Positions 11,871 to 59,040 of a DNA stretch of 64,000 nt are shown here, piece after piece; position 1 is the first letter of the stretch; the number at the start of each line of letters is the position of its first letter. The position numbers and the translations under genes are program-made. Under the pieces are notes generated by a model. That model was not told the origin of the DNA. It made no database searches and saw nothing but the letters and a program-made list of their open reading frames with translations. The stretch comes from a virus. Location of the stretch: the IMG/VR virus record IMGVR_UViG_3300045988_122441, one strand, 5' to 3'.

Positions 11871-11893
11871 GCATATTATTTAATTAGCTTGAC
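11871..11893 (-). promoter_or_regulatory. copy 2 of the 23-nt motif
   Basis: Minus sense GTCAAGCTAATTAAATAATATGC, 47 nt upstream of ATG 11823. Confidence 0.4.
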
Positions 11894-13966: not shown

Positions 13967-14061
13967 CGCCTTTGTCTTTTAGCACATTCCTGTGCAAGGA
14001 CAATTTCTCCTTTCTTCGTTTCTTGTATCTGCATATAGCATAATTAAACAAGTGGAAGAAA

Positions 14062-14174
14062 TCGGACGAACGCCATTAGAATTAGACGCGTTGTTGTTGT
14101 TCGCATTGCCGTTGTTGTTCACATTACAGAAGTTAGTCGCAGACCTCACACCACGCAGCCAATAGTTGAAGCGA
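14062..14174 (-). repeat. DGR template repeat (TR)
   Basis: Minus sense GTCGCTTCAACTATTGGCTGCGTGG...AATGGCGTTCGTCCG, rich in AAC codons. Aligns to VR1 (offset exactly 800 nt) and to VR2. Lies 95 nt upstream of the RT start. Confidence 0.9.
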
Positions 14175-14216
14175 CAAACGGCGCAAAACATGCAGAAATT
14201 GCCCTGATTAGTTTCC

Positions 14217-14771: not shown

Positions 14772-14785
14772 TTCCTCCGTATTAA

Positions 14786-14810
14786 CCCACCCACCCGGAG
14801 GTGGGATGGG
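14786..14810 (-). other. GC-rich hairpin downstream of VR1
   Basis: CCCACC-cgga-GGTGGG core with flanking imperfect extension, between the target stop (14844) and the avd start (14771). Could be a terminator and/or a DGR target-recognition hairpin. Confidence 0.4.
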
Positions 14811-14843
14811 ATTAAAGATATTGCATTGTATTTCTTGTCAATA

Positions 14844-15776
14844 TTAATTAACGAAGAAAAACGGACGAACGCCAAGAGAATTAGACGCGTCGTAGTTGCT
14901 CGCATCGCCGTAGCTGCCCACAAAACAGAAGCCAGTCGCAGACCCCACACCACGCAGCCAACAGGTGAAGCGACGGTGAATGTATTCAGGAGCGAGAGCG
15001 AACAGTGGGAACTGAGAGTTGATACATCCAACTTCGTAACCGCTATTAGCCCATACTTTTGTTCCGTATACCATTGTCTCGGACATCAGCTCAACTTTAC
15101 AGTCATACCAAGCCCATCCAGAAGCCTGTCCATCAGCAGTTGCGTTTGGCAGGATATCTCTGTAGGACATTACGTGAGAAGAACCGAAGTCATTCACGAT
15201 TTTCTGAGTAGCCTGTGCAAGGTTTGTAGTTCTCATATCAGAGTTTGCGTATGCTCCAGTAGTAACGTTGTTTGCAGCGCCTTCTGTATACTGACCGCTA
15301 TCTGTGTTATGCATCTGTGCATTGTACAGAGCAGAGTCAGGAACAAGGCACATGCAGTTACCGAGAGAAGACTTATCTCCAATCTGCTTTCCGAGGTTGA
15401 ATCCAGCAACTCGATATACAGTGCCGTTGATTGTCAGGTAATCACCTACAAACAGGTCGTCAAATGTACCTGCCTGAATAGCTTTTGACATAGCGGAGGT
15501 GTAGGAAGTACCTAAGTTCTTACCTCTGAAAATAGAGTTATGACCTCCTGCGTTGTTTCTTGCTGCACCTGTGTACAGCTCATTGATTGCGGCTGGGAGA
15601 GTTTTTGTACCCTGATCCAGACCATAAGTTTTGCTCATCAGCTTGTTAAGGGCGGCAGTGGAGAGATTTCCGAAAGTCACACCCTTAGTACCATTCGCAC
15701 CGTCAACTGGGAGTACATCAGTATCAGCAACAGAAGTAACAGCGGAAAGGTCTTTAATTCTTGTTGTATTTGCCAT
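14844..15776 (-). CDS. DGR target 1: tail-fibre / receptor-binding protein with a C-terminal C-type-lectin-fold variable region
   Basis: Fibre-like N-terminus (MANTTRIKDLSAVTSVADTDVLPVDG). C-terminus ..FTCWLRGVGSATGFCFVGSYGDASNYDASNSLGVRP is encoded by VR1. Confidence 0.85.
   Translation of the reverse strand: MANTTRIKDLSAVTSVADTDVLPVDGANGTKGVTFGNLSTAALNKLMSKTYGLDQGTKTLPAAINELYTGAARNNAGGHNSIFRGKNLGTSYTSAMSKAIQAGTFDDLFVGDYLTINGTVYRVAGFNLGKQIGDKSSLGNCMCLVPDSALYNAQMHNTDSGQYTEGAANNVTTGAYANSDMRTTNLAQATQKIVNDFGSSHVMSYRDILPNATADGQASGWAWYDCKVELMSETMVYGTKVWANSGYEVGCINSQFPLFALAPEYIHRRFTCWLRGVGSATGFCFVGSYGDASNYDASNSLGVRPFFFVN
14862..14974 (-). repeat. DGR variable repeat 1 (VR1)
   Basis: 113 nt. There are 17 differences from TR, all at TR adenines (17 of 29 A positions). 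The 84 non-A positions are all identical. Confidence 0.9.
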
Positions 15777-28300: not shown

Positions 28301-31039
28301 GAGGTTGGCAATAAATCCGTCTTAGGGTCATAGATCACGTCGCATGTCTTAGACTCTGGATTGTACCCATCAATAGCGGAGGCATCTACTTTTGCCTGAA
28401 CATTAATTGTTTCTGCCGATAAATTTGCGATTGATGTCTGAATAGATTCTACGGACGTAGAGTCTATATTCAACTTCGCTTTAATATCTGGCGAAAGATT
28501 CTGAATTTCAGAAGCGAGAGAGTTTACCTGAGATTCAGCCTCGCTAGTGTCAGCACCTACTTTCTGCTTGATTTCCAGATCATTTGTGGCATTCTGGAAT
28601 TGCTGCAGAAGTGAGATTGCGTTGCTGACTTCGCCCTCAACCTGAGAAGCATCGACACGCATAACATCAGGCTGTGAAAGGAGCTGCTTCTGTGTAAGGC
28701 AATACTGAATAACAGCGTTGGCATTGTCAATGCTCGAAGCATCGACATCCGGTCTAGCTTTAATGCTATCCATCTCAGCAATCGTTGCATCGAGGGCATT
28801 GATCTGTTCCTCTGTTGTAGAAAGATCAGATACATCCATCTTAATTTTCAGATCGCTGTTGCCGTCTAACTGTCGTAACGATTCAGCAGCTTCATTGGCT
28901 TCTACAGCTAAATCACCTACTGTTTTAACTGCTTCGTCTCCCCAGTCAAATTCAGCACCTTTCAACTGTAATTCATCGAAAAATGCCTGGACAACACCAG
29001 AAGATAAGTTCAGTCCCTCTGCGAAGTCCTCCATCTTCTTGCCACCGAGGACTTTAAATCCGTCATCTTCGCTATATGACATCAGTCCGGCATCAACAGA
29101 TTTCTGAAGGAATTTATCAATATCAAGACCGTCAACAACTCCGTCGTCATCGAATCTCAGATACTGTTTGAAGTCCGACATATAGGACTCAATAGCACCG
29201 AGATCTTCACGATCAACAGAATCTGGTACGATGAAATCTACGGCAGCTTCAAATTTCTTTGAACCAAAGTTCCCATAGATATCAGAGTTCGCATCGTATG
29301 TATCACGAATTTGCTGTATAGCACTAACAGTATCATTCGCCATATCTCCATAATCAGAAGCACTCTGTGCATTTAACCAATGCTGGTAAGCACCAACAGC
29401 TTCCTGAATAGAAGCGGAGAGTAAGTCGTACTGAGCACATGTATCAGCAATAGCACTGTTTTCATCCAGTAAGGCATCTATTGAAGCCTGTATGCTGTCG
29501 GCTGTTTCGCCTTCTGCAAAACTTGCATCCCGTAACTGCTGACGATATTGTTCAATCTGTCGTGCGTTCTCAAGATATTGAGATTGTGCCAGTGCCTTGT
29601 TTGTGTTGTTGATAGCAACCTGTTCGTCTGCTTTGGCTTTAGCAATTTCTGCTACTTTATCCGCATTTAACTGCATTGTGCCATTGACATACTCAAGAGC
29701 ACTTCGATAATCTGCGAGTTCATCAGAATTGAAATCTTCTACGGATATAGACTTTCCGGTCATCTGACCGTTTAATACAGACTGTACTGCATCAATCTGA
29801 GATGTCAGCTCCTGCGTTGCTTTAGTTGTATCGTCTACGGCATTCTGAATTCTTTCTGCATTGGATACGACAGCCTCGCCCGCATCGTCCGTAGCTTCTG
29901 CACTGGAATTGATAAGATCTACGAAGTCGCTGATTGATAATCCGGCACCTTCAATGGCAGAAGCGAGTTCAGGATATTTTTCCTTTACATCGTCAACCGA
30001 TATACCAGCTCCGTCAGTAGCCTTTGCTAATTCTGTGAGTTCATCCTTAGCCTTCTTGTATTCATCGCTATTTAATATTTCATTAAATTGCATCTGTTTC
30101 CAAGCAGTAGGGTCTAATTCTGAGTAGATATAGGCAATCTGGTCATCAATCTGACTTAACACATCTGAAGCGCCGTCAACCTTTGCAAGTTCTTCTTCGG
30201 GGAGAGCTTTAAGCGTGTCTCTATATTCTGTAAGAAGTTTTACCTGATCCCAGATAGAATCTGTTAAATCCTGATTCAGATCGTCGTAATGTTGGATGTC
30301 TTCTTCCAACCATTTGATATCATTCTCATTTCCATCCTTCTGTGCTTTTGCAAGCTCATCCTTAGCTTCTTGCTTCAAAGCATCGAACTGTTTTATAGCT
30401 GCAAGCATAGAAGAAACATCAGTCGGCTCGACAGTAAGACCAGCATTATTCCCCGTCATCTGAGCATAATCTTGACGCTCTTTGGTTTGACTTGCACTGA
30501 TTTCATTTTTGAAATTCTTTTTATATGCTGAAACAGTATCTTCAGCAGCTTGTCTGGCTGCTTTATTTTCTTCTCTTTCAGCTAAGTCCTGCTGAATTAA
30601 CAGCTGTTCAGTAGCATCTTTGAGCTTCTGGAGTTCTGCCTCCTCCACAAATGTAAGATGTTCTTTACCAAGCAGCTCATCCATAGAAGCCTTTGTTGTG
30701 TCTAATTCTGAGTTGACACTTTCGAGATTAGACTGAGCTTCTTGATAAGCACTGTATGAATCACGCATCTTATCATTAGCTTCTGATGCAGATACATATG
30801 CCTTTGATATTGCGTAAATACCTGCGGCAACGGCAGCCGCAATAGCGACAATCGGTACAAGTGTTCCGGATAACGCAGCAGCTCCAGCAGATAATGTTCC
30901 GAATACGCCAGCTCCACTCGAAGCGGCTGCAGCCATCTTTGCAATCGCATCTCCTACACTACCGAAAGATAACTGTAGCGCCACGAATACATCTGATAAA
31001 GACTTTATTCCTCCGATGTCTTTAGTAACAGACAATAGA
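25339..31039 (-). CDS. tail tape measure protein, 3' exon (C-terminal ~1900 aa)
   Basis: Long coiled-coil sequence. N-terminal hydrophobic Ala/Gly-rich segment. TMP-type block GGDWGTAPGGRTLVGELGREIVVDP. No SD before the ORF-track ATG at 31056, so it probably needs splicing to the 5' exon. The 5' boundary is approximate. Confidence 0.7.
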
Positions 31040-32042
31040 CATGTCGGGTATTTCATGGTAAAATTGAATAAAATCTATGGGAGGTATATTTATGGCTTTG
31101 ATAAAATGTCCCGAGTGCGGACAAGATGTGTCTGATAAAGCAATACAATGCATCCATTGTGGATATCCTTTAAATATCCAGAAAGATAGTGCTTATGATA
31201 TTATCTATAATGGATTTGAAAATAATTCATTAAAATACAAGTATCAAGCAAATCTGATAGGATGTATAAGACAACTGCTGAAATTAGATTTAACAACTGC
31301 GAAAATGATTATTGACAACCCACCATATACTCTTTTCCATTCTGTATCAAAAGAACAGGCAGAATGGATTATTACAACATTAAAACCGTTTCAATGCAAT
31401 GTTACTGCAAACGAATCTAATAGCGATATTCAGTCAAATATTGAAATTGATTCTTATATGGCAAACGGATCAACATTGATATGCCCGCATTGTGGTTCTA
31501 ATGAAGTTATAACAGGTCAAAGAGGCTTTTCATTATTAACCGGATTTATAGGCAGTAATAAAACCATCAATAGATGTGGAAAATGCGGATATAAATGGGA
31601 ACCGTAATTTATGTCTTCTTATCGACGCTGACATATGCGTACCATGATTAGAGTGAGAGATAAGTTCTCACTACACGAGGACTATACATTAAAAGTCGCT
31701 ACACTAGGCAGTAGCGGCTCAAAGGGTGGGTAGTCTCTGAGGATGAAGCTGTGAGTCTTCGTCCGGCTGATGTCATCCTATCTGCAGAAATATCTGCGTA
31801 GCACTTAGGCTTACTATCACCATATGCCATCCAATCATTTGTTTCTGCCTTTCGCAACGTTCACGCTTATTGTTTCCAATTACGTTGTAGTATGATTGGT
31901 TTAACCAGTTTCCCAGCAATTACCCCTTTGTGTGATTTGTTTTAAAACGCTCACCCATAGCCTTGGCTCATATCTCCAAAATTGATATGTCCTTGACCAT
32001 GCCGACCTCTGTTACAGATAACCCATGATTTTGGGTCAAGCC
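31040..32042 (-). mobile_element. group I intron in the tape measure gene (catalytic core about 31950-31650; splice sites approximate)
   Basis: Read in minus sense. P-like AAUUGCUGGGAAA. Q-like GCCUAAGUGCUACGCAG. R-like UCAGAGACUAC. S-like GUAUAGUCC. Pairings seen: P3 CAAAGGG (31930-31924) / CCCUUUG (31726-31720); P5 CCAAUCAU / AUGAUUGG; P7 GACUA / UAGUC; P8 CGCUAC / GUAGCG; P9 AGUGAGA / UCUCACU. Confidence 0.7.
31092..31607 (+). CDS. double zinc-ribbon protein with a ribosomal L7/L12 C-terminal-like middle domain, encoded antisense within the intron
   Basis: GGGAGG at 31079-31084, then ATG 31092. CPECG..CIHCG and CPHCG..CGKCG ribbons. Middle segment LIGCIRQLLKLDLTTAKMIIDNPPYTLFHSVSKEQAEWIITTL resembles the L7/L12 CTD. 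Confidence 0.65.
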   Translation: MALIKCPECGQDVSDKAIQCIHCGYPLNIQKDSAYDIIYNGFENNSLKYKYQANLIGCIRQLLKLDLTTAKMIIDNPPYTLFHSVSKEQAEWIITTLKPFQCNVTANESNSDIQSNIEIDSYMANGSTLICPHCGSNEVITGQRGFSLLTGFIGSNKTINRCGKCGYKWEP

Positions 32043-33829
32043 ACGTTCTTGATAATTTTGGCTATTCCTAATCCTACAAGAATGGTCTTTAATGAACCAA
32101 ACGTGCTGATTACTTTATCAATAGCCTCTACAATACCTCTAAGAGCATCGACAGCTCCTTTTGTAAAGTCTGAGTCGAAAACGTCAGAAGAGAGTTCCTG
32201 AAATGCAGCTTTCAGCTCTCCAACTTTTGCCTTAGTGGTATCCATGTAAATATTGTTTGCTTCTGTTGCAGTTCCAGCAGAATCCATAGCACTTGCATAA
32301 GCACCGATAGCATCCTTGATATTAGTGATTGTAGACATAATACCTGATGTATTACGTGTACCACCAAGAATTTCTGCAACACGAGACTGGGATACATCTT
32401 CCATGTTGTCCCAAACTTCTGCAAGCTGTACGAAGATGTCATACATATCCTTATATGTGTTTTCATCTTTCATGATGTCAACGCCGGATAATGCCATGAT
32501 TTCTTCTCTATACTTAGACAGACCCTGAGCTAATCCGTCTGTCTCTTCACCCATTTCCTCAAGCTCTGTTGTAGCCCCTCGGATACGAGCACTTACTGTT
32601 TTCCACATTGTACCTGTGGTTTCAGCATTCTGAAGGGATGCGTTTGTTGCGGCGAACAAAGCAGCACTCTTCTCGAAGTCAGTTCCAGAAGCATGGAGTG
32701 CAGCACCACCTCGCTGAAACGCAGCCATAAGTTCCTCGGCTGAGATAGCGTATTCCTGACCTACCTTTACGAGCACATCTGATACGTGTTCTGCATCACT
32801 TGCATCCATTTCGTATCCCTTTATGATAGAAGTAATACCAGTTGTAGCAGTGTCCACGTCAGTGTTACCGACATTTGCCATGATATTTGCATATTTAGCC
32901 AAATTCGATGAATCGCTCATGTTGTATCCGAGTCGAGCAAATGTTTCGATAGATGATGCTACATCAGTTACACTCTGACCAAGCTCTTTTGCAAGAGAGA
33001 TGGACTTCGTAAGAAACGCTTCCATTTGAGAATCAGAGGCTCCAGTTACAATCTGGATCTGAGCCATAGCACTTTCGACTTCAACAGCAGCAGAGACCAT
33101 CTGTTTTACAGTTCTAATCGCATACATGATTGCCTGTGAAACCGTCAACCATGAAGAGAATTTTGAAGCCAGACCGGATATTCTGTCACCAAATGACTGT
33201 GTATTTTCTCCAGCTGTTCTGATAGCAGTTGATGCATCAGTTACAGTTGCTTTAATAGAGGCAAAACGCTCTTTGAACTGTTCAGCCGAAACAGATCCAT
33301 TCATTAACCCTGTTTTTAACGCTTCTAATGCAGTGATCTGGTCTTTAAGCGCAGAATAGCTTGTACTGGTATTACCGTTTCTTGCCGCAGTCCATTTCTG
33401 AGTATTTACAGTTACCTGTCCAAGAAGATTGTTTACTTTGGTCAAAGCATCTGTATGTTTCTTTGTGCCGACTGCAAAAGCATTTTCACTCGCTGCAGCC
33501 TGTTTTGTAGCATCGGCGGCTTTCCTTGTAGCATTGGCATTAGCATTTTTTGCCTGTGTGTTGGCATTGATAGCTGCGGTATCTTTTACCCATATTCCTG
33601 AATTGGTCTTTGTGTATCCACCTGCTAACTTTGCCGCATTTGCGCTCGATGCAGCCTTAGTCATAGATTCAATCTGCTGTCTCATAGAAGACAGGGACGA
33701 ATCATCAAATTTAAGTTTTATTTTCGGTGGATTAGCATTGACCTGAGAAACCAGACTGGTAATTCCCGCCTGAAATTCAGCATAGCTCAACGAAGTATCC
33801 ACGCCGACTGTCAGTAAAATGTCAGCCAT
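32036..33829 (-). CDS. tail tape measure protein, 5' exon (N-terminal ~595 aa)
   Basis: TP901-type TMP core (QIQIVTGASDSQMEAFLTKSISLAKELGQSVTDVASSIETFARLGY). The frame stops at UGA 32038-32036, exactly where the intron-like sequence begins. Confidence 0.75.
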   Translation of the reverse strand: MADILLTVGVDTSLSYAEFQAGITSLVSQVNANPPKIKLKFDDSSLSSMRQQIESMTKAASSANAAKLAGGYTKTNSGIWVKDTAAINANTQAKNANANATRKAADATKQAAASENAFAVGTKKHTDALTKVNNLLGQVTVNTQKWTAARNGNTSTSYSALKDQITALEALKTGLMNGSVSAEQFKERFASIKATVTDASTAIRTAGENTQSFGDRISGLASKFSSWLTVSQAIMYAIRTVKQMVSAAVEVESAMAQIQIVTGASDSQMEAFLTKSISLAKELGQSVTDVASSIETFARLGYNMSDSSNLAKYANIMANVGNTDVDTATTGITSIIKGYEMDASDAEHVSDVLVKVGQEYAISAEELMAAFQRGGAALHASGTDFEKSAALFAATNASLQNAETTGTMWKTVSARIRGATTELEEMGEETDGLAQGLSKYREEIMALSGVDIMKDENTYKDMYDIFVQLAEVWDNMEDVSQSRVAEILGGTRNTSGIMSTITNIKDAIGAYASAMDSAGTATEANNIYMDTTKAKVGELKAAFQELSSDVFDSDFTKGAVDALRGIVEAIDKVISTFGSLKTILVGLGIAKIIKNVA

Positions 33830-41250: not shown

Positions 41251-41273
41251 GTAAATTATTTAGTTAGCATGAC
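41251..41273 (-). promoter_or_regulatory. copy 3 of the 23-nt motif
   Basis: Minus sense GTCATGCTAACTAAATAATTTAC, abutting the capsid gene SD. Confidence 0.45.
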
Positions 41274-46883: not shown

Positions 46884-47911
46884 TATTCATCACCATCCTG
46901 ACTTTCTGAGTACGCATCGATCAATAAAGATTCATCGTCCTCATCTTCGTATTCAGGCTTTTCTACTCGAAGTCTATTAATTTCATCCTCATACAACCTG
47001 GTATATCCATTCTTTACACCGCACATTTTGCATATATGCCCCAGCCATGTGAACACGTATTTTTTAATGCGGTTGACATCCTGTAAAGATTTATCAATTT
47101 CAGGTAATGGACGTTTGTTCTCATACCTAAATAACCATACGCCAAGCGGAGTGTTAGCTATTGAAGCATCCAGTTCGTCAGATTTCTTTTGAGCTGGCTT
47201 GAGGTTTAAACTACCAATCAGTGTATTCAGTGAGTTTACGCTCTTGTCAATAGATTTTCCGGCAGCAGCGTCCTTCGATATACTTACTTCAAGATTGCAG
47301 AGCTGTCTCATTAACACGTCGCTACCGATATCATTTCCGCCAGCATCAGAGAAGGCATCTGGAAATTTTGAACTGTAATATTTGCGACGTTGTTCAAGCT
47401 GCTCATACATCTCTTTAGAATACCCAGTTCCCCAAAAGGCAATTACTTCTTGCGGGATATCCGGTTCATCGGCAGTATTTGACTCATCTGCCTCATCTGG
47501 TTCTATATCTTGTGGTTCTGCTGCAACCTGTGTAGTATCAAAAGACCACAGGATGCCCTCGTCGAGCAAAGTATCATCATAGCTTTTACCTGCACATGAG
47601 ACGCTATTGATACGAACAATATACTGTGTCATTAATGATCGCACAGAACTTTTCTTTACTACACTATCAAAAATACTTTCATTCCAGTATAAGTCTAGTT
47701 TACGGCATGTCTGTCTGACCGCCATTTTTGAGTCCTTACATTGTGCGAGATATTGACTATATATTTTGTCAATACACGATCTGCAATACGGGATGTACCC
47801 CAGACCTTTATATAGTTCTCCGTAACTTACAGGGAAAAATCCCTTTCTTTTGGAGTATCCAGTACCGCATGTGGGACAGATTACTTTATCTGTGTTCATT
47901 TCCAAAGCCAT
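46883..47911 (-). CDS. hypothetical protein in the small-terminase position (N-terminal zinc ribbon)
   Basis: CPTCG..CRSC. Acidic linkers. Directly upstream of and coupled to terL. Confidence 0.35.
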   Translation of the reverse strand: MALEMNTDKVICPTCGTGYSKRKGFFPVSYGELYKGLGYIPYCRSCIDKIYSQYLAQCKDSKMAVRQTCRKLDLYWNESIFDSVVKKSSVRSLMTQYIVRINSVSCAGKSYDDTLLDEGILWSFDTTQVAAEPQDIEPDEADESNTADEPDIPQEVIAFWGTGYSKEMYEQLEQRRKYYSSKFPDAFSDAGGNDIGSDVLMRQLCNLEVSISKDAAAGKSIDKSVNSLNTLIGSLNLKPAQKKSDELDASIANTPLGVWLFRYENKRPLPEIDKSLQDVNRIKKYVFTWLGHICKMCGVKNGYTRLYEDEINRLRVEKPEYEDEDDESLLIDAYSESQDGDE

Positions 47912-48375
47912 TATTCATCACCATCCTCTTCGTTAAAATCAGGTGATTCATAGCTGGATAGACGCTCAGCCAAAGAAAGTTCATACATTTTGGCACACAT
48001 CTTTAAATCCTTGCCAGATTCAAACTTTGGTACATACCTGCCAGAGACTTCAACATCTTCATGCGTGACTGGATGTTTATTAGTTCGCGGTTTTCTGTAG
48101 TTTAGAGAGAGAGTACCGAACCCTCTAATAGACACAGACTCACCTCGTTTTAAACTGTCACCAATAACCGCAAGGCAGGTGTCCATCATTGCCTCTACAT
48201 CGTCATATGTAAATAGAACACCTTTATCTGTTTTCTTGACAACAAAGTCTTTTGTATTTCCTTCGTCATCAGATATATGGAAAACCTGCTTTTGGGATGA
48301 GACAGGTTTCCGAATATTATTTTCTCGCATCACGTTTGCAATGCGACGGACTAATTCCTTTCTATTCATATTCAC
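47911..48375 (-). CDS. HU/IHF-family DNA-binding protein with an insertion
   Basis: MNRKELVRRIA.. and IRGFGTLSLNYRKPRTNKHPVTHEDVEVSGRYVPKFESGKDLK match the HU fold signature. Confidence 0.7.
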   Translation of the reverse strand: MNMNRKELVRRIANVMRENNIRKPVSSQKQVFHISDDEGNTKDFVVKKTDKGVLFTYDDVEAMMDTCLAVIGDSLKRGESVSIRGFGTLSLNYRKPRTNKHPVTHEDVEVSGRYVPKFESGKDLKMCAKMYELSLAERLSSYESPDFNEEDGDE

Positions 48376-48395: not shown

Positions 48396-49424
48396 TTACA
48401 GGTCTCCCAAGCCTTTCTGCTCGGGCGCAACAATATCGCCATCTTTAAAGTACATTCCGATCTGTTCATCAGCATCAATGTCTTTGTACAACTGAACCAT
48501 ATCAGAAGACTCCCATGCGACAATACTCTGGATTACTCCGTCCGGGATTCCGGCTTTCGCAAGACTGGTGGTGAAATAATGTCGCAGGCTATGAATATAG
48601 GCTGGCTTGCCCGATAACCTTGAGAACGTATTTGACCAGCTATTAATGGTTGAGATCTGGATATGTTCTTCTGGATTCTTTGCATCGGGGAACAACCATT
48701 CGCTATCGCCATATTTGTCCAGACGACGATTGCGCCACATATCGAGATATGGGGTGAACTTCTTTGCAAGCGTGTAGCAGTTAATCATCTTGCCACCGCC
48801 TCTGCCTTTAGTTTTGATTGGAGCGCTTTTATACAAAGCCCCACCGCATACCAGTTTATCCTCATCAAAATCTGATATCTTGAATCTACATAATTCGGAT
48901 TTCCTTCTTCCACTGTACATTGCGAGAGCGAGATAGCAGGCTTTTTCATAATCCTTGCGCTCAACAAGCTTCTCCAACAACGCCTCAAGTTCAGAATCCT
49001 CCCATACTGTCTTTTCTCTGACAGGTCTATTCACCGGATTCTCTACTTTGTTGATAATATTTCTGAAATTAGGAAATTCATCATCCAATACGCTTTCAAT
49101 GAAATTGCTCATGGATGAGAGAGCAGCTTTCAACCTTCTGATTCTGGCTGGGCTATTCTCATTTGAATTTAAAAGCCAATTCTGATAAGCAACGATATTT
49201 CGTTTTGTCCAATTCACGAAGAATGTATTGTTGTTATGCTGTAAGCACCACACGAATGCAATCTGAATATCGTTTTCATATCCAGCAATAGTTGTTTCGC
49301 TTCTCTGGATTGAGCGAAGATAGTCCTTGAAGTCTTCAAGTAACTGTGTATTTTCTGGATTCACTTGCGCCAGCAGCTCTGGGCTAGTGATTGAGTTCAT
49401 TTTTGTCTTACGTCCCACGCGCAA
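48396..49424 (-). CDS. second tyrosine recombinase (XerC/D-like)
   Basis: N-terminal SAM-like domain. Catalytic ..RRKSEL.. and IHSLRHYFTTSLAKAGI..VQLY. The true start is probably GTG 49418 or ATG 49400. Confidence 0.85.
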   Translation of the reverse strand: MRVGRKTKMNSITSPELLAQVNPENTQLLEDFKDYLRSIQRSETTIAGYENDIQIAFVWCLQHNNNTFFVNWTKRNIVAYQNWLLNSNENSPARIRRLKAALSSMSNFIESVLDDEFPNFRNIINKVENPVNRPVREKTVWEDSELEALLEKLVERKDYEKACYLALAMYSGRRKSELCRFKISDFDEDKLVCGGALYKSAPIKTKGRGGGKMINCYTLAKKFTPYLDMWRNRRLDKYGDSEWLFPDAKNPEEHIQISTINSWSNTFSRLSGKPAYIHSLRHYFTTSLAKAGIPDGVIQSIVAWESSDMVQLYKDIDADEQIGMYFKDGDIVAPEQKGLGDL

Positions 49425-50778: not shown

Positions 50779-50958
50779 CTACCCTTCGGCGCACACAGTA
50801 CACTCGTTACGGTATGCTTTAAGGAAAGCCATGATTCTGTCAGACTCTTCACAGAAATAATGATGTCTGCCAGATTTATGTTTCATGGTTCTACGGATAT
50901 GTGCATCTGGAAAACTTTTTAAAATTGCTTCCTTCTCAACCTTTGTTACTCTAACCAT
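50779..50958 (-). CDS. small hypothetical protein
   Basis: AAGGAG lies 7 nt upstream of ATG 50958 (MVRVTKVEKEAILKSF..). Confidence 0.45.
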   Translation of the reverse strand: MVRVTKVEKEAILKSFPDAHIRRTMKHKSGRHHYFCEESDRIMAFLKAYRNECTVCAEG

Positions 50959-51103
50959 TTCGATTCTCCTTCGACTCTTGTATTTATAGAACAATCACGT
51001 TCATATATTCCCTTCATACAAGCACCTCATCAAATACCTATATACGGTTGAGTATCAATACGATAAGAGTGGTAGCAAATTTATATCGTGCTAAAAAAAT
51101 AAT

Positions 51104-51889
51104 TTACACACCTAAATTTTTCCTTCGCATGATGTAGTTTACCCGCTGTTGAACGGCTATTTCTGTGGCGCACGCTTTGCAGAATTTCTGTTTCCGTCCT
51201 TTTTCTGGGTCTGTATATTTTACTGTAATACCGCAATTTTCGCATTCAAAGTACGGGTTACGTTTATGCTTTCTATATTTATATTTCATATACTGATACC
51301 CCAGATTGCGAAAATCTGATACCGATAAAGCAACAGGAGAGGAGCCATCTACGAAGCATACACGAACGTTTGTGTTATCAATACGCTTAGAGAATCGGAG
51401 TAACCCAGCATCTTTTAATACGCCGTATAATAAACATTGCCGTTTAATAGATGTATTAATATTTGCAAGAGCCATTATTTCATTATCCTTATTATTTACC
51501 CAGTAATCAGTCTCCGGTGATACAGCATACCAATATTTAGCAAGACACAGAAGAGTAAAGGCTAATCTCTCTAGCTGGACACCATCCAATGACTCGATAA
51601 GCTTCAGCTCATTCTCTGTAATATCGAGTTGGTCAATATCGACTGCTTCATATTTGAAAGCACTGGTTACTGCGTACTCAAGAGCTGCGTCCCATTTTGG
51701 GAGAGAAGCAAGTGGGTCGCATTGTAATAGGAAGATATCCAGTTTCTGACGTACTTCTTTTTTCTTTTCATACCCATTATCTATGTAATATCTCGCAATG
51801 CGACGCAATGTTTCAGATGGTTTCTTTCCAAGTGATTTGGACTGAATCATTTTTTCAGCCCAATCATTTTCTTTTAATACAATACTCAT
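51104..51889 (-). CDS. hypothetical protein with a C-terminal zinc finger
   Basis: 261 aa. CENCG..CKAC. Coupled to the upstream RNAP-like gene. Confidence 0.45.
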   Translation of the reverse strand: MSIVLKENDWAEKMIQSKSLGKKPSETLRRIARYYIDNGYEKKKEVRQKLDIFLLQCDPLASLPKWDAALEYAVTSAFKYEAVDIDQLDITENELKLIESLDGVQLERLAFTLLCLAKYWYAVSPETDYWVNNKDNEIMALANINTSIKRQCLLYGVLKDAGLLRFSKRIDNTNVRVCFVDGSSPVALSVSDFRNLGYQYMKYKYRKHKRNPYFECENCGITVKYTDPEKGRKQKFCKACATEIAVQQRVNYIMRRKNLGV

Positions 51890-54633
51890 TCGTTCACCTC
51901 TAATTTCTTTGATACTATTTTGAATCGTTCACCACAATACTCAATGTCACCATCTGCATCCAGTGTTGGGAAATTAACTGTGTGATTATGGTTTAATAAT
52001 AAATTATGTATAATTTCTGAGCCACACATATTCCAAGCAAATCTTTTGGATGAGCTTTTCTGGTAGCACAGATCCAGAACAATATTGCACAGAGCGGACT
52101 CATTCTGGCAGATAATATCACAGGATTTGCGGAACTCTGCATTCATTTCAGAAAGTTCTGTAAATGCGTCGTACTTGTCGATCTTTTCGCTCTGAGCAAA
52201 TACGGTATAGCTCTGCATTTTTTTGTTGTAGTCTTCATAAAGCTTTTTGATAGCCCTATATTGCGTGGTGGTATAATCCTCAGAAGCATTTTTCATAATC
52301 GTGTAATCAAACTTGATTTTGGAATTATGCTTTCTGATATACCCATCAAACTCTTGCTCGAATCGTTTGCATATTTTGTTCATGACACACTCGCCAGTAC
52401 CTACAGGCATCCGGTAGTCATAATATCTAAGAAAATCAGATTGCCGTTCTGTCAGCTCATCGGCAGGAACCATTCTCAACTCATCAACAGTCATCTGGAA
52501 TTCTCTCAGGCAGTTTCGATTCGTATTTTTTATGTATTGATTATATTGTTTCATGAGAGCTGGGTAGATATATCTCATAAAGTATGGCTTCTTGTCAGCA
52601 ACAATACTTCTATAGAAGTCCCTTAGTTCATCATCCTCGATTTTATTTGCAGCGTGTCTATCGTGCCATGTTCTCGGCATCGGCTTGCAAATAATTCCTT
52701 TCGCCTTGTCGATTGCATTCTGCTGATATAACTGACCGCATCTGATACGATAGGAGAGTGTGTCGTACTCAACACTTCCTTTTGGATAATGAGAACGAAC
52801 CTCGAACATTGATGTAATATAGTTTGTTGTCTGTCCGATGTCATTACCGAAGCTCTCAATATTGGAACGTACAAAATCGTCTTCAGTAGGAATTGTCTTA
52901 GCTGCCTTTCGCTGAGCGCACATAAGAGCCGGAAGCGGTTCTAACTTCTCAACGAGGATTCTATTGTCACTGAGCATGACCAAATCACCGTCAAAGTCCA
53001 TTCCGTTTAATGCAGCAGCTGCGGTGTCCCATGCGTTGAAAATCGTACAGGTCTTCATATGTTGATACCAATAATCAGCATCGGAGCTATGAACGGGATA
53101 TACCAAACGGATGTTATTGTGGCAGGTCATAGGCGCACGAAAACAAGCAAGCTTCTCTGAACCAAAATCTCTCCAGTATTTATTGTAGATTTCTCCAGAT
53201 TTCAACAGACCGGTTACTTCCAATCCAAACATGTTCTGGCAGAGTGCGTATGGATCACCAGACACTATAGAATAATTGCCATGAACTTTAAGTACGCCCA
53301 CTTTAGCTTCATCGATACGATTTTTGATAAGCTGGTATATTGCGTTTTGAACAAACGGGTCATCAATCATACGCTTATCAATCATAATTGCCTTTACAAA
53401 ATCATCATCCAGATTTTCAATATTGGACTCATTCATACCGATGCCTTTTAAAAACAGCAGTGTTTTACGCCAATCACCATGGAGAACGTCTTTGATTTCA
53501 TTCATAGTTGGGGCTATCAGTTCTTCAATCTCATCATCGGATAAATTGTAGCTCTGAATGAACTGATAGTTCAGTGAGTGCTCACTTTCCAATTCTTTTG
53601 GACAGGTCTTTGCGATTCCGAATGTGTATCCGTTGGATAATGAGTTTCGTACATACGCTTCGCAGCTATCATAACTATCCCAGAGCTTTACCATAGAAGT
53701 AGTGAGAATCAATTCTACATCACGCACATCGAAATCATTTCCCCACGCATCTTTGATAATGTATTTTCCTCCGGCAATCTTTTCTGCAAAATCTACATAA
53801 TCAAATGTGAAAGCCATTCCTTTTTCAAATGAGAAGCGGGTATTTGCTCCACTGATTGTATAGTCGAGTCCAAGCTCTTTGCTCCAACGCTCTGCGAGTG
53901 ATGGGAGCATCATTCCGAAACCATCTGATGCATCAAGATCAACCTTTTGCTGTTTCTGTAACTCCATTGTCGGTTCGCCATCGCATTCATCAGTCAGATA
54001 TACAATGTCAGAGAGGAACGAAGTCTCGCAGTCATTTACTACAGCGATTCCTTTCGGGAATGAAACTGGAGTAGAAGCACTACAGGTGAGAGCCTGATAC
54101 GCTTCGAGCTTTGCAGTAACCAGTTCTTTTTCTGGATTTCGTCCATTGGATATTCTGCGATGCAGTTCGTCAATAACCTTTTCGCTTACAAATACGATAG
54201 TGCTGTTCTTGATTCCACCATTGGTTCCGAGCAGGCGTCGATATTTTACGCCATTGATCTGAAAGCCTTTGCAGGCACGATAGTAGTCCTTTTCTTTGTC
54301 AATAATCAGAGTAACATAGTCTGCCTTATACTGAAGCTGATCCAAATCCTCATACAGTTTCTTAATGGCGTGTCTGTTTTTTACGCTGTTTGGAGCAGTT
54401 CTTAAACTGCGAATCTCTTCCTTGATTTTTTTAGCTTCAGCGTCTGCATCTGTGATGTCATTCAGATAATCAATCCAGCGCAATGTCTGGCTGTCCGCAA
54501 GAGATATCACTTCTTCATTCCTTCTTGCTTCCTCGATCGGGAGTGTTAGCCGCCAACGATGTTTACGAAGGCGGCTACTATGTAGCTTATAAATAAATTT
54601 TTGACAAGTAAGTTGCTTGCTAATTTTGAACAC
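51886..54633 (-). CDS. YonO-like single-subunit two-barrel RNA polymerase
   Basis: ACFRAPMTCHNNIRLV resembles the beta-prime NRAPTLH motif. LNGMDFDGDLVM resembles the universal NADFDGD metal-binding loop. 915 aa, similar in size to SPbeta YonO. GTG start with a weak SD. Confidence 0.65.
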   Translation of the reverse strand: MFKISKQLTCQKFIYKLHSSRLRKHRWRLTLPIEEARRNEEVISLADSQTLRWIDYLNDITDADAEAKKIKEEIRSLRTAPNSVKNRHAIKKLYEDLDQLQYKADYVTLIIDKEKDYYRACKGFQINGVKYRRLLGTNGGIKNSTIVFVSEKVIDELHRRISNGRNPEKELVTAKLEAYQALTCSASTPVSFPKGIAVVNDCETSFLSDIVYLTDECDGEPTMELQKQQKVDLDASDGFGMMLPSLAERWSKELGLDYTISGANTRFSFEKGMAFTFDYVDFAEKIAGGKYIIKDAWGNDFDVRDVELILTTSMVKLWDSYDSCEAYVRNSLSNGYTFGIAKTCPKELESEHSLNYQFIQSYNLSDDEIEELIAPTMNEIKDVLHGDWRKTLLFLKGIGMNESNIENLDDDFVKAIMIDKRMIDDPFVQNAIYQLIKNRIDEAKVGVLKVHGNYSIVSGDPYALCQNMFGLEVTGLLKSGEIYNKYWRDFGSEKLACFRAPMTCHNNIRLVYPVHSSDADYWYQHMKTCTIFNAWDTAAAALNGMDFDGDLVMLSDNRILVEKLEPLPALMCAQRKAAKTIPTEDDFVRSNIESFGNDIGQTTNYITSMFEVRSHYPKGSVEYDTLSYRIRCGQLYQQNAIDKAKGIICKPMPRTWHDRHAANKIEDDELRDFYRSIVADKKPYFMRYIYPALMKQYNQYIKNTNRNCLREFQMTVDELRMVPADELTERQSDFLRYYDYRMPVGTGECVMNKICKRFEQEFDGYIRKHNSKIKFDYTIMKNASEDYTTTQYRAIKKLYEDYNKKMQSYTVFAQSEKIDKYDAFTELSEMNAEFRKSCDIICQNESALCNIVLDLCYQKSSSKRFAWNMCGSEIIHNLLLNHNHTVNFPTLDADGDIEYCGERFKIVSKKLEVNE

Positions 54634-54643: not shown

Positions 54644-54666
54644 GTAAATTATTTTATTAGCATGAT
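54644..54666 (-). promoter_or_regulatory. copy 4 of the 23-nt motif
   Basis: Minus sense ATCATGCTAATAAAATAATTTAC, ending 10 nt before the RNAP-like start codon. Confidence 0.4.
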
Positions 54667-54674: not shown

Positions 54675-54902
54675 TCAATTATTGAACTCATTGATATACT
54701 CACGCCACGCACTTTCAAATTCTGATCGACCATCTTCGACTATTCGCTCTACGACATCATCTGTCAGTAAATCTCCATCAAGAGGATAGAAGTCCTCGCA
54801 TGGTGTTGCCTCGCTGCAGTTTTCTTTATATACACAGTTATTACATTTATGCTTCATTGATTGTATTTCCTCCCTGTACTGTTTCTTCAATCCAATTTTC
54901 AA
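54675..54902 (-). CDS. small Cys-rich hypothetical protein
   Basis: 75 aa with CNNC..C..C. Overlaps the end of the upstream ATPase gene. Confidence 0.4.
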   Translation of the reverse strand: MKIGLKKQYREEIQSMKHKCNNCVYKENCSEATPCEDFYPLDGDLLTDDVVERIVEDGRSEFESAWREYINEFNN

Positions 54903-56094
54903 GCAGATTCCTCATACGTCTGCTCGGTATGTATAAATATATTTCATCTCCATCCCGGATGGCTGATCGCCAGATCCACTGAACCATAATAGACAGAGCA
55001 TACATATCATCGTCAGCCTCTATGCCATGCTTGTGGTAAAATGTCTTTTCACCAACATTCATAAAGAGATTGACCAGATATATCATATAATGTCGGTTCC
55101 TATATTCGTTTGTCGCTTTCATATTAAATCGCAAGAATGACCTCGTATATCCTTTACCACTAATTTTGCATCGGCAGTCATTGAACGTACCCCACATTTT
55201 CTCACCGGCTGGAGCATTTCTCCAAATATTATTAATGCAGTTGTTGACATTATTCTTTAACTGTTCTACATTGTTTTCGTCTCTGCCAAACCAACTCATT
55301 GATAACGCATGATAGCTGTCACCGATATTGTTCATCCTATCATTATCCAGAATATGAATCATATCTTTTAAATGGCTGACATATTCCGGTGTATAGCCAG
55401 GGTAGTCACAGAATCGGTAGTGTCCTGACTCTGTTTTCTGGATACCAATATACTCATATGGAAGCTGGTACATCTCCAGAAAATGATGAAGCGATTGCCC
55501 TTTGAATATGTATGTCAGTATGATTACATCTTTGAATGCCGTGATTAACTCCGGTGGCAATACCCAATAAAAAAGATGTGTGCCAGCACTGTCTTCCATC
55601 TGAATTAACTGACGAACCTTTAAGAATTGCCGCAGCTCGTGATAAAGTCTTCCGTTATAATCTTCTTTGGCAAGATAGTAAGTATCCTCATCTCGAATAA
55701 TCAGCCCAGAGTCAATAGCTAATTGAATGTCATCCGGATGAAAATCATATTTCTCCAGAACATCTACGTTTTCATCAATGATGAGGCGATAGCCATATTC
55801 CCGGATGTCATCCAACATGTCCTCCGTATATCGCTTAAATGCTTGATGCGTGGTTGTGATATTCTTTCCTTGTTTAATAAGAGCAGCGGTATGCTCGCTT
55901 TTCTTAAATCCATACTCTTTTAGCTTGTCACTTGGTTCTACGAAATGCATTGACTTGCATCCATTCTTAATTCGTTCAGCTTCTTCCAAGTATGGTGTGA
56001 TGTATATGAACTTTTCTTCCTTATGTTCATTCATATACGTGATAGCAGCACTGGACTTGCCAGTACCCATGATTGCATCACAAACTTGGATCAT
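54847..56094 (-). CDS. P-loop NTPase (helicase-like)
   Basis: AGGAGG precedes ATG 56094. Walker A MGTGKSS, Walker B LIIDENV, TTHQAF motif. First gene of the leftward array. Confidence 0.55.
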   Translation of the reverse strand: MIQVCDAIMGTGKSSAAITYMNEHKEEKFIYITPYLEEAERIKNGCKSMHFVEPSDKLKEYGFKKSEHTAALIKQGKNITTTHQAFKRYTEDMLDDIREYGYRLIIDENVDVLEKYDFHPDDIQLAIDSGLIIRDEDTYYLAKEDYNGRLYHELRQFLKVRQLIQMEDSAGTHLFYWVLPPELITAFKDVIILTYIFKGQSLHHFLEMYQLPYEYIGIQKTESGHYRFCDYPGYTPEYVSHLKDMIHILDNDRMNNIGDSYHALSMSWFGRDENNVEQLKNNVNNCINNIWRNAPAGEKMWGTFNDCRCKISGKGYTRSFLRFNMKATNEYRNRHYMIYLVNLFMNVGEKTFYHKHGIEADDDMYALSIMVQWIWRSAIRDGDEIYLYIPSRRMRNLLENWIEETVQGGNTINEA

Positions 56095-56277: not shown

Positions 56278-56300
56278 GTAAATAATTTAATTAGCTTTAC
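56278..56300 (-). promoter_or_regulatory. copy 5 of the 23-nt motif
   Basis: Minus sense GTAAAGCTAATTAAATTATTTAC, in the divergent control region. Confidence 0.4.
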
Positions 56301-56382
56301 AATCCAAAAATAAAATCTGCAATAAATAAGCAGATCATTTATTTAGCATTATTATACCATTGTTTGCATGGTATGTCAATAA

Positions 56383-56405
56383 GTAAATAATTTAATTAGC
56401 ATGTA
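56383..56405 (-). promoter_or_regulatory. copy 6 of the 23-nt motif
   Basis: Minus sense TACATGCTAATTAAATTATTTAC, in the divergent control region. Confidence 0.4.
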
Positions 56406-56834: not shown

Positions 56835-57989
56835 ATGACAAAACAGCAGACAGCAACAACAACCACAACAACAGCGTTTGAAACATTACTTGTAAACTTC
56901 TGTAACGAATACAGAAAAGACCGCAACAGCACAACTTTCACAGAAGTAGCAACAGACCTTGCAACAGCTATTGCATACTCAGTAATTAGAAAATGTCTTG
57001 ACCCACAAGCGAAAAGCGGAAAAACTAGCAACAGCGGTTGCAACCCTCAGTTAGAAGAAGTTAAAAGAAGCATTTACAGAGACACGAACACATTAAAGAA
57101 CATTGATTACAGTTGTGAAAAAGCATTCACAACAGTGTACAACGAAGATGGAGACAGACAGACAAAGACGTTAGACAGTGACTATAGATACGCATACAAC
57201 AAACTTACACAACAGACACTAGGGGATGGGATAGACCTTGTAAACACTGCTATCGTTTCACTTCTGGACGAATGCACAAAAGTAGACACGACAACAGAAA
57301 ATTTTCTTGAAACGGTGTACACCGTCCGCAAACTTAAAAAGAAAGTTTGGATTAAAGTGTCTGACAGCGTGAACGGATGGGAAACGGTGGAAACTTCCCC
57401 GATTCGTGAAGTATACAAGGCAGTTCGCCGCGAGGTTGCAAATAACCGTTCTTTAAATATTGATCCGTCGAATGGTTACCTGTACTTGGAAGATTTAGCA
57501 AAGGACGAAGAAAGCAACGAAGAAACAACCGTATATAGAAGATTAAACAAGTATACAGATCTAGCCGGAAACGTTACAGACTTTAATGGGGCGGTCAAAT
57601 TTGAAACTGTAGACAGTGGAAGCGTTGCGGACTATGACAAGATGACAGAAGCGTTAGAACTGACAGCACGACAGGCACAAGTATTACAGTTACGCATGTC
57701 GGGCTATGGTTGCGTTGCAATCGGTACATATTTAGGCGTTAAAGAAGAAAGTGTTAGAAGCGTATTACAGACAATACAGAAGAAAGCGGTTGAAAAACTT
57801 TCTTTACCGTCTTACCTTGTCGAAGCAATGACAGCACCAACAGCACCAAAAAGCAAATTGACAGACGAAGACAAGAAAGCAATTAGAAAAATGATTGAAG
57901 ACGGTCACACAATGAAATTTGTAGCAGACTTTTACAACGTTTCTAAAATGACAATTAGTAGAATTGTAAACGGACGCAAAGACAGATAA
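56835..57989 (+). CDS. sigma-factor-like / HTH transcription regulator
   Basis: AAGGAG precedes the ATG. Region-4-like HTH (LTARQAQVLQLRMSGYGCVAIGTYLGVKEESVRSVLQTIQKKA) plus a second C-terminal HTH (FVADFYNVSKMTISRIVNG). Confidence 0.5.
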   Translation: MTKQQTATTTTTTAFETLLVNFCNEYRKDRNSTTFTEVATDLATAIAYSVIRKCLDPQAKSGKTSNSGCNPQLEEVKRSIYRDTNTLKNIDYSCEKAFTTVYNEDGDRQTKTLDSDYRYAYNKLTQQTLGDGIDLVNTAIVSLLDECTKVDTTTENFLETVYTVRKLKKKVWIKVSDSVNGWETVETSPIREVYKAVRREVANNRSLNIDPSNGYLYLEDLAKDEESNEETTVYRRLNKYTDLAGNVTDFNGAVKFETVDSGSVADYDKMTEALELTARQAQVLQLRMSGYGCVAIGTYLGVKEESVRSVLQTIQKKAVEKLSLPSYLVEAMTAPTAPKSKLTDEDKKAIRKMIEDGHTMKFVADFYNVSKMTISRIVNGRKDR

Positions 57990-58239: not shown

Positions 58240-59040
58240 ACAAAAGACAGAGCGAAAAGGCTGAGAACTCAGAGAGTTCGCCTATGTCAGATGTGCGGTA
58301 TATAAATATGATCTGACATAGTACATAAACCGCCATGATTAATAAGTTTCTAAAGAAGAGTCTCTCTATATTGAGGGGCTTTTCTTTATGGGCTTATGTC
58401 CATACGACTGTGAGGTCTACCTGCTCACAGGTAATAAGTGCATATACCGGTATCTTTCGGGGTATCGTGAGGGCTACCTGTGTGATAGGAAATAAGTGAA
58501 CTATACCAGTTGAAGCGTTCAATATGGGAAATCCGGCAAAAGGACGCTATACAAATAGTTTCGGTGAGCCGACCTACCGACGGCTTTAGAATATCGGCAA
58601 AACTCTGCGGTTATCGTGGATTCCTTTAACCGATTTGAGGGAGTACATCTGCTATCAGATGCGTCGATGGTGCATGAGAGTTAGGCTCATGGTTTCGAGA
58701 TAGTGAAAATCCCCATAGTTCGGCAGTTCGTTAGATGTGAAACTTTGCCGCATAATCCTGAGTGCGTCAACATGAGGGATAGCAGGAAAAATCTGTTGAG
58801 GTTTCCAATCGTAGTGGTATCAGTACCCGAGGGTACATCGGCTATGTTCCGAGGAATTAAATGCCGGACTATTGCGGGATTTCCGATGCAGACGGAGTAT
58901 AGCGAAATAAAACTGAATATTAAGCGGAGTGTGCAAACATTCCGATAAACCTATATTGAGCGTCCGAGATTGTGTATATCGCATGGTTTCGGGCGTTCTC
59001 TTATGGGCTTATCCCATGTAACAAAGAAAATAGAGAATCC
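58240..59040 (+). ncRNA. candidate large structured non-coding RNA region (family unassigned)
   Basis: About 800 nt with only one weak GTG-started ORF. Appears more GC-rich than neighbouring DNA (by eye, not counted). Many hairpins. Two long stems (58356-58383, 58960-58996) pair fully only in plus sense because they need G-U pairs. An internal duplicated ~60-nt module is present. Confidence 0.4.

Follow-up and report, generated by a model that had tools for sequence, protein, structure and literature searches.

The locus described here raises the question of how a phage-encoded, single-chain RNA polymerase (RNAP) finds the genes that it is to transcribe. It lies in a 64,000-nucleotide (nt) stretch of viral DNA, IMG/VR virus record IMGVR_UViG_3300045988_122441 (hereafter the window, meaning the whole stretch), where a sequence-only reading had placed a YonO-like RNAP. 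The open reading frame (ORF) is present as noted there at 51886–54633, on the minus strand, which had been left unstated; it comprises 915 codons and opens with GTG. Judged from sequence, its product is very probably a YonO-family two-barrel RNAP with an intact active site. A gene for a candidate winged-helix/zinc-ribbon protein (hereafter the partner) follows directly and is strictly linked to it. Taken as a whole, the locus is best explained by a transcription cascade in which a catalytically competent YonO-type RNAP works with this partner, an explanation that we consider likely.

To our knowledge, YonO-type enzymes are the smallest known relatives of cellular RNAPs, and YonO is the only characterized member among those of bacteria and phages. 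They have been argued to resemble the single-chain ancestor of cellular RNAPs. The earlier remark that very few such enzymes have been characterized is correct, yet the family is very abundant in phages of gut Clostridia; we counted 1,859 clusters (50% identity) at E ≤ 1e-3 and 574 at E ≤ 1e-30. The polymerase alone belongs to a known family, and its homologs in phages c-st and PMBT24 are already annotated as YonO-like or as RNA-dependent RNA polymerase (RdRP). What is new here is the obligatory pairing of the polymerase gene with a winged-helix/zinc-ribbon gene, the vestigial ribbon, the frequent non-canonical starts and a conserved downstream element.

Family, active site and fold of the polymerase

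The polymerase features, all on the minus strand, are as follows; the two peptides quoted in the sequence-only reading, ACFRAPMTCHNNIRLV and LNGMDFDGDLVML, were both found in the ORF.

51886–54633, minus strand: predicted gene of the YonO-family two-barrel RNAP; probable true start ATT at 54624–54622, giving 912 amino acids (aa)
53821–53925, minus strand: predicted active-site residues of the beta-like barrel, D237, R266 and K271 (QDE-1 D709, R738 and K743), from the 82-sequence alignment and spacing
53101–53148, minus strand: ACFRAPMTCHNNIRLV segment, residues 496–511, holding the invariant R499 and P501; equivalent to beta-prime NRAPTLH and QDE-1 R962/P964
52972–53010, minus strand: LNGMDFDGDLVML segment, residues 542–554, containing DFDGD (546–550)
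52984–52998, minus strand: predicted catalytic aspartate triad DFDGD (D546, D548, D550), from alignment; YonO mutated at the equivalent position is inactive

Profile and pairwise comparisons with YonO were positive, bearing out the family assignment of the earlier reading. The Pfam family PF05183 matched residues 111–569 with 54.1 bits against a cutoff of 23.8 (E 1.4e-14), and BLASTP aligned residues 122–610 with SPbeta YonO over 507 columns (E 8e-28, 25% identity), pairing FRAP with LRSP and DFDGD with DNDGD. Additionally, tblastn matched 40 records of GenBank phages, at 40% identity in c-st, 38% in Enterocloster phages, 30% in BUCT082 and ~25% in the yonO genes of SPbeta and related phages (E between about 1e-21 and 1e-26; 3e-21 for SPBc2 yonO itself). 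One of the matched proteins bears the NCBI name 'DNA-directed RNA polymerase YonO'. Megablast of the region gave no match among GenBank phages, a PDB sequence search with the polymerase returned only spurious enkurin and TFIID matches, and in NCBIfam neither the polymerase, the partner nor the YonV-like and YonG-like proteins of the same locus are represented by a model. The features of the YonO/PF05183 family that could be checked in silico were all found except a zinc ribbon in cis, a difference that marks a subtype within the family.

Eight residues are invariant in all two-barrel RNAPs, namely D709, R738, K743, R962, P964, D1007, D1009 and D1011 of QDE-1 (Ruprich-Robert and Thuriaux, PMC2919709). 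Their counterparts D237, R266, K271, R499, P501, D546, D548 and D550 were invariant across 82 sequences of the window clade and the YonO clade, with a spacing of 29/5 and 2/45 in the window and of 29/5 and 2/43 in QDE-1. With all eight present at QDE-1-like spacing, the active-site residues of both barrels, and not just those of the beta-prime-like one, are intact by alignment. The invariance across these homologs also upholds the earlier recognition of R-x-P and DxDGD as elements of the beta-prime-type barrel. In YonO the aspartate triad is essential, and the 3D>3N mutant is inactive (Forrest et al. 2017, PMC5467207).

An AlphaFold2 model was built on the 82-sequence alignment (mean predicted local distance difference test (pLDDT) 81.7, predicted template modeling score (pTM) 0.77). 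It confidently predicts a two-barrel fold resembling QDE-1 and plant RDR2, the best matches of a Foldseek search against PDB (E ~1e-17, template modeling (TM) score 0.45–0.50 over ~900 columns). Next were two minimal two-barrel RNAPs from Thermus phages, those of P32 and P74 (E 4e-7 to 4e-6). Like the window polymerase, P32 gp64 and P74 gp62 (P23-45 group) are phage-encoded, single-chain, non-virion enzymes; they differ from it in fold details (TM 0.24–0.36), share no detectable sequence similarity with it and belong to another phage group and gene context. Multisubunit beta-prime was matched only marginally (E at least 8e-3, TM < 0.1) and not at all in the PDB sequence search, and the polymerase is not a beta-prime homolog in any practical sense.

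Among the 50 PDB fold matches listed, of which the first 23 had E ≤ 1e-3, neither YonO nor a crAss-phage protein appeared. With crAss-like phi14:2 gp66 and with beta/beta-prime, the polymerase shares the barrel motifs DxDGD and R-x-P. CrAss-like virion RNAPs are giant (>2000 aa), virion-packaged proteins, unlike the 915-aa window polymerase. The likeness to YonO and the motifs shared with crAss-like RNAPs, both noted earlier, stand. Given the length of the protein and the lack of a crAss entry among the fold matches listed, the polymerase is placed in the YonO/cellular-RdRP branch, outside the branch of crAss-like virion RNAPs.

Pfam names PF05183 'RNA-dependent RNA polymerase', and the top fold matches are RNA-dependent enzymes, both of which would suit an RdRP or a primer maker acting on RNA or single-stranded DNA (ssDNA) rather than a transcriber of late genes. 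QDE-1 accepts ssDNA templates too (PDB 7y7r–7y7t), and the homologs of PMBT24, TR-TP1 and Perkons are annotated as RdRP. However, these database names derive from the Pfam label and not from experiments, and the window has the genomic module of YonO, a strict and processive DNA-dependent RNAP that has a strong preference for DNA templates and on which late mRNA depends (PMC5467207). QDE-1 and RDR2 share the eight invariant residues and a near-identical spacing with the window polymerase; at 13–14% identity, they copy RNA or ssDNA for silencing, whereas the enzyme studied here sits in a phage late-transcription module. We consider an RNA-dependent or priming role very improbable.

The true start of the polymerase is probably not the GTG but ATT at 54624–54622, codon 4 of the ORF, because the homologs all align only from residue 4 and because an in-frame stop lies within four codons upstream in 26 of 71 relatives. 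The GTG at 54633 is further doubted because it sits within a Shine–Dalgarno-like GAGGTG. This strong GAGGTG is located 6–9 nt upstream of the non-canonical start codon. The equivalent codon in the 71 related loci was ATG in 23, ATA in 13, TTG in 12, ATT in 9, CTG in 8 and ATC in 4. As read from these sequences, the non-canonical starts suggest that translation of the polymerase may be deliberately throttled in the window subclade.

The window polymerase gene is uninterrupted, unlike those of c-st and of Enterocloster phage CB473P3, in which ORF-less inserts (10672–10988 and 2345–2771 of those loci, respectively) split the codons D548|G549, window numbering, inside the DxD|GD triad. These inserts are full-length group I intron matches (E 1.6e-4 and 3.8e-8), below the Rfam gathering score. 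CB473P3 carries a second insert at 3060–3506, after about residue 642. The group I intron inserts account for the split PHROG families 25339/35857 and for the many database proteins of half length, which stop at ~548 or begin at ~553.

The partner protein and its zinc ribbon

The features of the partner and of the ribbon are the following.

51104–51889, minus strand: partner gene, 261 aa, with a 4-nt overlap with the polymerase stop codon; helical N-domain, winged-helix-like domain at residues ~104–190 (51320–51580) and C-terminal zinc ribbon
51170–51244, minus strand: zinc ribbon of the partner, invariant C216, C219, C237 and C240; homologous to YonO tail residues 792–832
51922–51951, minus strand: vestigial half zinc ribbon at the polymerase C-terminus; GDIEYCGERF aligned with the first knuckle of YonO, QCExCGKRI

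The partner ORF lies directly after the polymerase in 79 of 79 IMG/VR loci (60–99% identity), mostly with an ATGA overlap, and in 77 of 77 loci from bacterial genomes, at polymerase identities down to 45%. The pair also occurs in phages c-st, PMBT24 and BUCT082. The partner matched CST177 of c-st, annotated 'YonO homolog (C-ter only)', with E 6e-27 and the ORF just after the PMBT24 polymerase with E 4e-10. Full-length polymerase identity is 38–40% for c-st (CST179/178 with CST177) and for the Enterocloster phages PMBT24 and CB473P1–3, and 30% for Bacillus phage BUCT082; all of these share the pair of a polymerase and a small zinc-ribbon ORF. We know of no functional characterization of the c-st, Enterocloster or BUCT082 homologs.

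The zinc ribbon is distributed between polymerase and partner. A C-terminal CxxC...CxxC ribbon was found in 105 of 108 full-length polymerases of the YonO clade and in none of 120 from the window clade; in the partner family it was present in 113 of 120 members. Supporting the homology of the two ribbons, hhalign placed partner residues 209–253 on YonO 792–832 (probability 92%, P 5e-7). As a control of specificity, a hidden Markov model (HMM) made from 86 YonO-clade tails was run against 10,223 six-frame ORFs of the collected loci, in which partners had been classed independently by their ribbon-less N-terminal 205 residues. Ranks 1–146 were all partner ORFs, 97 of them with E ≤ 1e-3; unrelated ORFs began at rank 147 (E 0.04), and the window partner scored E 0.0036.

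The window polymerase shares with YonO the aligned catalytic triad and R-x-P motif, and the alignment of their C-terminal regions extends to the first ribbon knuckle. In the window polymerase the first Cys is replaced, C900 is retained and the second knuckle is absent. By alignment, the window clade has a vestigial half-ribbon in cis and a complete ribbon in trans. It differs from YonO in an identity of only ~25% and in having the complete ribbon on a separate winged-helix protein encoded immediately downstream.

The AlphaFold model of the partner had a pLDDT of 90.9 and a pTM of 0.83. Its weak PDB fold matches are nearly all winged-helix (WH) binders: Rep initiators, Fur/PerR, ArsR, ORC and TFIIE/C34-type WH. 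In BFVD it matched, over its full length, uncharacterized proteins of gut siphoviruses (TM 0.73–0.80, 17–20% identity), with helix-turn-helix (HTH) proteins next. Pfam, PHROGs and NCBIfam gave no function for the partner, and our literature search found no paper describing such a polymerase partner. Some of its homologs are longer (~375–382 aa), and two of those listed have a GIY-YIG domain (PF01541), suggesting that a homing endonuclease has been fused to, or inserted at, the 3′ end of the partner gene.

The sequence-only reading had set the polymerase in a block with a P-loop ATPase, a zinc-finger protein and HU-like proteins. These neighbors were borne out as a YonV-like, ATPase-like protein, an HU protein, and the Cys-rich and zinc-ribbon ORFs at 54675–54857 and 51104–51889. 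The 'zinc-finger protein' is most likely a functional partner of the polymerase and not incidental context. We hold with moderate confidence that it is a DNA-binding factor working with the polymerase; that it acts as a specificity or initiation factor is a serious possibility, if one that falls a little short of probable.

Late transcription and its candidate recognition sites

The features that bear on transcription are as follows.

56351–56379, minus strand: promoter of sigma-70/sigma-A type, TTGACA-17-TATAAT with TG (12/12 match), upstream of the YonV-like gene
54847–56094, minus strand: YonV-like gene, first of the polymerase operon; weak DEAD/P-loop similarity; relatives carry PF27199 YonV_C
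54675–54857, minus strand: small Cys-rich ORF, 60 aa, CxxC...C...C; in relatives a 56-aa ORF is called at the same position
51041–51065, minus strand: hairpin position with central TTG-N5-CAA, directly upstream of the TGATG box; strong in relatives, degenerate in the window
50999–51036, minus strand: single-copy box TGATGAGGTGCT-TGTAT-GAAGGGAATATA, candidate late promoter, in the gap between the partner gene and the late block
47911–48375, minus strand: HU, a neighbor named in the earlier reading
8471–50958, minus strand: co-directional late block from a small ORF to the endolysin; presumed target of the phage polymerase by analogy with SPbeta
56383–56400, 56278–56295, 54644–54661, 41251–41268, 11871–11888 and 10090–10107, minus strand: copies of the repeat (CAT)GCTAAyTAAATwATTTAC
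51090–51107, plus strand: inverted copy of the same repeat, at the partner stop codon
56835–57989, plus strand: sigma-like protein, 384 aa, divergent from the polymerase operon; repeated sigma-70 region-4/HTH matches

Along the minus strand, the YonV-like gene and the 60-aa Cys-rich ORF are followed by the polymerase, the 261-aa partner, a 145-nt gap and a 59-aa ORF. Then come a YonJ-like metallophosphatase exonuclease, an Xer-like tyrosine recombinase, HU, a YonG-like protein and the large terminase, and after these the portal, capsid-like, tape-measure and tail/host-range proteins, a diversity-generating retroelement (DGR) and the endolysin (8471–10069). The matching order in SPbeta is yonO, yonN (HU), yonK, yonJ (exonuclease), yonG, yonF (terminase) and yonE (portal), and relatives at 74% identity carry the Pfam domains YonV_C, YonG_N/C and YonD_N. 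The small ORF after the gap (50779–50958) showed no detectable likeness to YonK. The module differs from that of YonO in its same-strand upstream YonV-like gene, its non-ATG polymerase start and a host among gut Clostridia instead of Bacillus.

In SPbeta, YonO is required for late mRNA, and the late genes form one operon whose start lies a few genes downstream of yonO (PMC5467207). The late genes of the window are all downstream of the polymerase and on the same strand, in a module that shares HU, the YonJ-like exonuclease, YonG, terminase and portal with SPbeta and for which a late-transcription role is predicted. By this analogy, the polymerase probably transcribes the late genes, in keeping with the earlier suggestion that the phage uses its own RNAP for part of its genome. 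The promoter at 56351–56379 is presumed to be the host-RNAP promoter of the operon of the YonV-like, Cys-rich, polymerase and partner genes.

The gap between partner and late block holds a conserved element. Its layout, common to 45 distinct related loci, is a hairpin, 3–5 nt, an invariant TGATG within TGATGrGGTGy, a TAtAAT-like hexamer 3′ of it and then GAAgGGAAATATA. A profile of the box found one site in the 64-kb window, at 51036–50999 on the minus strand (E 8.6e-5). The inner helix of the hairpin is paired in 85% of cells, with double-sided (compensatory) changes in 10 of 10 pairs; its covariation was 0.40, against 0.15 in shuffles (0 of 500 reached the observed value) and at most 0.22 in slid controls. 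The region sits where SPbeta has its YonO-dependent start site, and we therefore propose it as a putative late promoter region; the YonO paper gives no flanking sequence for that mapped start (PMC5467207). The hairpin could end the early operon as a terminator or belong to the recognition site.

Other identities for the element were rejected. Rfam gave no match to it at E ≤ 10. A RAGATH-18 RNA was seen in c-st (14965–15025 of that locus, plus strand), between the polymerase module and the HU gene; the element is unrelated to RAGATH-18, though the c-st copy sits at an analogous place. A hammerhead-like core (UGAUGA...GAA) is contradicted by many loci with G where A is needed and with no preceding C, and a conserved mini-ORF beginning with the ATG in TGATG by one locus that reads ATG-TAG and by 1-nt indels.

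The late genes might instead be transcribed by host RNAP redirected by the sigma-like protein at 56835–57989 or another activator, with the TGATG box and/or the 22-nt repeat as its promoter elements and the YonO-like enzyme serving a narrower or different target. The sigma-70 region-4/HTH matches of that protein, the TGnTATAAT inside some TGATG boxes and the first repeat copy adjoining the sigma-A promoter all fit such a scheme. On the other hand, roughly half of the loci have a −10-like hexamer without the essential A at position 2, a consistent −35 was not found, the TIGR02937 match of the protein (34 bits) is below the curated cutoff of 42.9, and the SPbeta precedent gives the late genes to YonO. 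We therefore regard a redirected host RNAP as improbable. As a canonical sigma-A promoter, the box does not hold up in about half of the loci, where A is missing at −11.

A second candidate site is the repeat, an 18-mer GCTAATTAAATTATTTAC that extends to ~22 nt with 5′ CAT and is present in 7 copies against 0.08 expected. Ahead of the YonV-like gene, the sigma-A promoter region has a copy on either side, the copy at 54644–54661 lies 7 nt upstream of the polymerase Shine–Dalgarno, one copy each adjoins the Shine–Dalgarno of the capsid-like gene and of the endolysin gene, and one lies 47 nt before a 147-aa ORF. Relatives have lineage-specific versions of the repeat at the same places. It could be a promoter of the phage polymerase with a short leader, or an operator like SPBRE, a repeat to which MrpR, the master repressor of SPbeta, binds at ten promoters, among them that of yonP just upstream of yonO (Kohm et al. 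2023, PMC10516654). Like SPBRE, it is an AT-rich multi-copy repeat (~15–25 bp) with one site at the promoter of the polymerase-containing operon; unlike SPBRE, with which it has no sequence similarity, it also adjoins late-gene ribosome-binding sites. The window yielded no MrpR-like repressor.

The polymerase might also work alone like YonO, the partner being an independent, co-expressed winged-helix regulator that binds, for example, the 22-nt repeat. YonO extends RNA alone in vitro (PMC5467207), the extra domains of the partner are without counterpart in YonO, the repeat evolves in concert within each phage as an operator would, and SPbeta has a repeat-binding master repressor at its yonP–yonO promoter. 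Against independence stand the specific ribbon homology with its complementary distribution in cis and in trans, the stop/start overlap in most loci, the adjacency of the two genes in 156 of 156 loci, and the YonO paper itself, which in 2017 explicitly did not settle what the promoter of the enzyme is or whether recognizing it calls for additional factors (PMC5467207). We found no later paper or solved structure on the promoter or cofactor question of YonO. On balance, we think it unlikely that the polymerase acts without the partner.

A cascade in which the two proteins act together, interacting physically or functionally, would run as follows. After infection or induction, host RNAP would transcribe the polymerase operon from the promoter at 56351–56379. 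The polymerase would be translated from its weak ATT start, and the partner would be translationally coupled to it via the ATGA overlap. The polymerase would then transcribe the ~42-kb late block (50958 to 8471) in one long unit or a small number of them, in the manner of YonO in SPbeta, and the partner would supply the lost ribbon function in trans, as a DNA-binding factor for initiation or specificity. Candidates for the sites recognized are the hairpin/TGATG box at 50999–51065 and/or the 22-nt repeat.

In its most specific form, this proposal describes a two-component RNAP across a large clade of phages of gut Clostridia, a ~105-kDa catalytic chain plus a dedicated ~30-kDa winged-helix/zinc-ribbon initiation factor, with the ribbon module that YonO has in cis, reading the hairpin and TGATG box or the 22-nt repeat; we put it forward tentatively, as possible but less likely than not. 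If true, it would be the simplest known 'core + specificity factor' system of the two-barrel RNAP lineage and would answer how YonO-type enzymes find promoters. It offers a concrete candidate for the missing initiation factor together with two candidate DNA recognition sites. If confirmed, the pair would provide a minimal model of how two-barrel polymerases gain promoter specificity, and possibly a compact orthogonal transcription system for anaerobic Firmicutes.

Several points weigh against the cascade as a whole. The Pfam name and the best structural matches point to RNA-dependent enzymes, and DNA-dependent RNA synthesis is a prediction for this polymerase and its clade. The partner had no significant PDB fold match (best E 0.07), so the term 'winged helix' rests on topology and weak matches. 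Since a half-ribbon is kept on the polymerase, the history was not a simple gene fission, and the ribbon of the partner need not replace a lost one. YonO itself has the ribbon only and none of the other partner domains, and the ORF downstream of the TR-TP1 polymerase lacks a ribbon. The hairpin is degenerate in the window, at −1.2 kcal/mol compared with −10 to −22 in relatives. The TGATG element is detectable only in relatives of about 61% identity or more; its profile matched nothing in the clade at 45–50% identity, nor in SPbeta, c-st, PMBT24, BUCT082, TR-TP1 or Perkons. About half of the loci have a TATAAT-like hexamer in the box, so that a host-type promoter is possible, and the sigma-like protein could direct host RNAP to the late genes. 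The 22-nt repeat fits a repressor operator of the SPBRE type as well.

Host range and other features of the window

The window represents a large phage or prophage of siphovirus type from gut Clostridia. A copy of the polymerase with 99% identity lies on a 114.8-kb IMG/VR contig and one with 97% on a contig that binning assigned to an uncultured Ruminococcus sp. Relatives at 45–75% identity come from Oscillospiraceae and Lachnospiraceae, including the cultured Lacrimispora, Frisingicoccus caecimuris and [Clostridium] aerotolerans. Nine contigs with the module were found in metagenome-assembled genomes (MAGs) labeled Odoribacter, Prevotella, Alistipes, Bacteroidaceae, 'archaeon' or Candidatus Nanosyncoccus. 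These labels outside the Clostridia most likely reflect mis-binned phage contigs and not true hosts.

Two tyrosine recombinases are encoded, a conventional integrase at 5878–7080 (plus strand) near NrdD/NrdG/PhoH and the Xer-like one at 48396–49424 (minus strand). The latter is kept between the exonuclease and HU genes of the late module in all close relatives. It was considered as an MrpR-like repressor and rejected, as no similarity to MrpR was found and it looks Xer-like.

The DGR lies at 12653–15776, beside the tail and host-range genes, with the following parts.

12653–13966, minus strand: reverse transcriptase
14059–14175: template repeat
14858–14974: variable repeat, at the 3′ end of a 310-aa ORF (14844–15776)

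The two DGR repeats are 85% identical, and their mismatches fall at template adenines (A>G 11, A>T 7, A>C 2). A 2149-aa ORF of the window is a host-range protein, and one of 1905 aa is a tape measure. The tape-measure protein appears as two ORFs, of 597 aa (32036–33829) and 1905 aa (25339–31056), which cover consecutive regions of phrog_4211. The ~1 kb between them holds a plus-strand 176-aa ORF (31077–31607), and the two-ORF arrangement may reflect an insertion or a split gene. Additionally, a RAGATH-16 RNA was detected at 58646–58718 (plus strand) in the divergently transcribed region, scoring 89.8 bits, above the Rfam gathering score.

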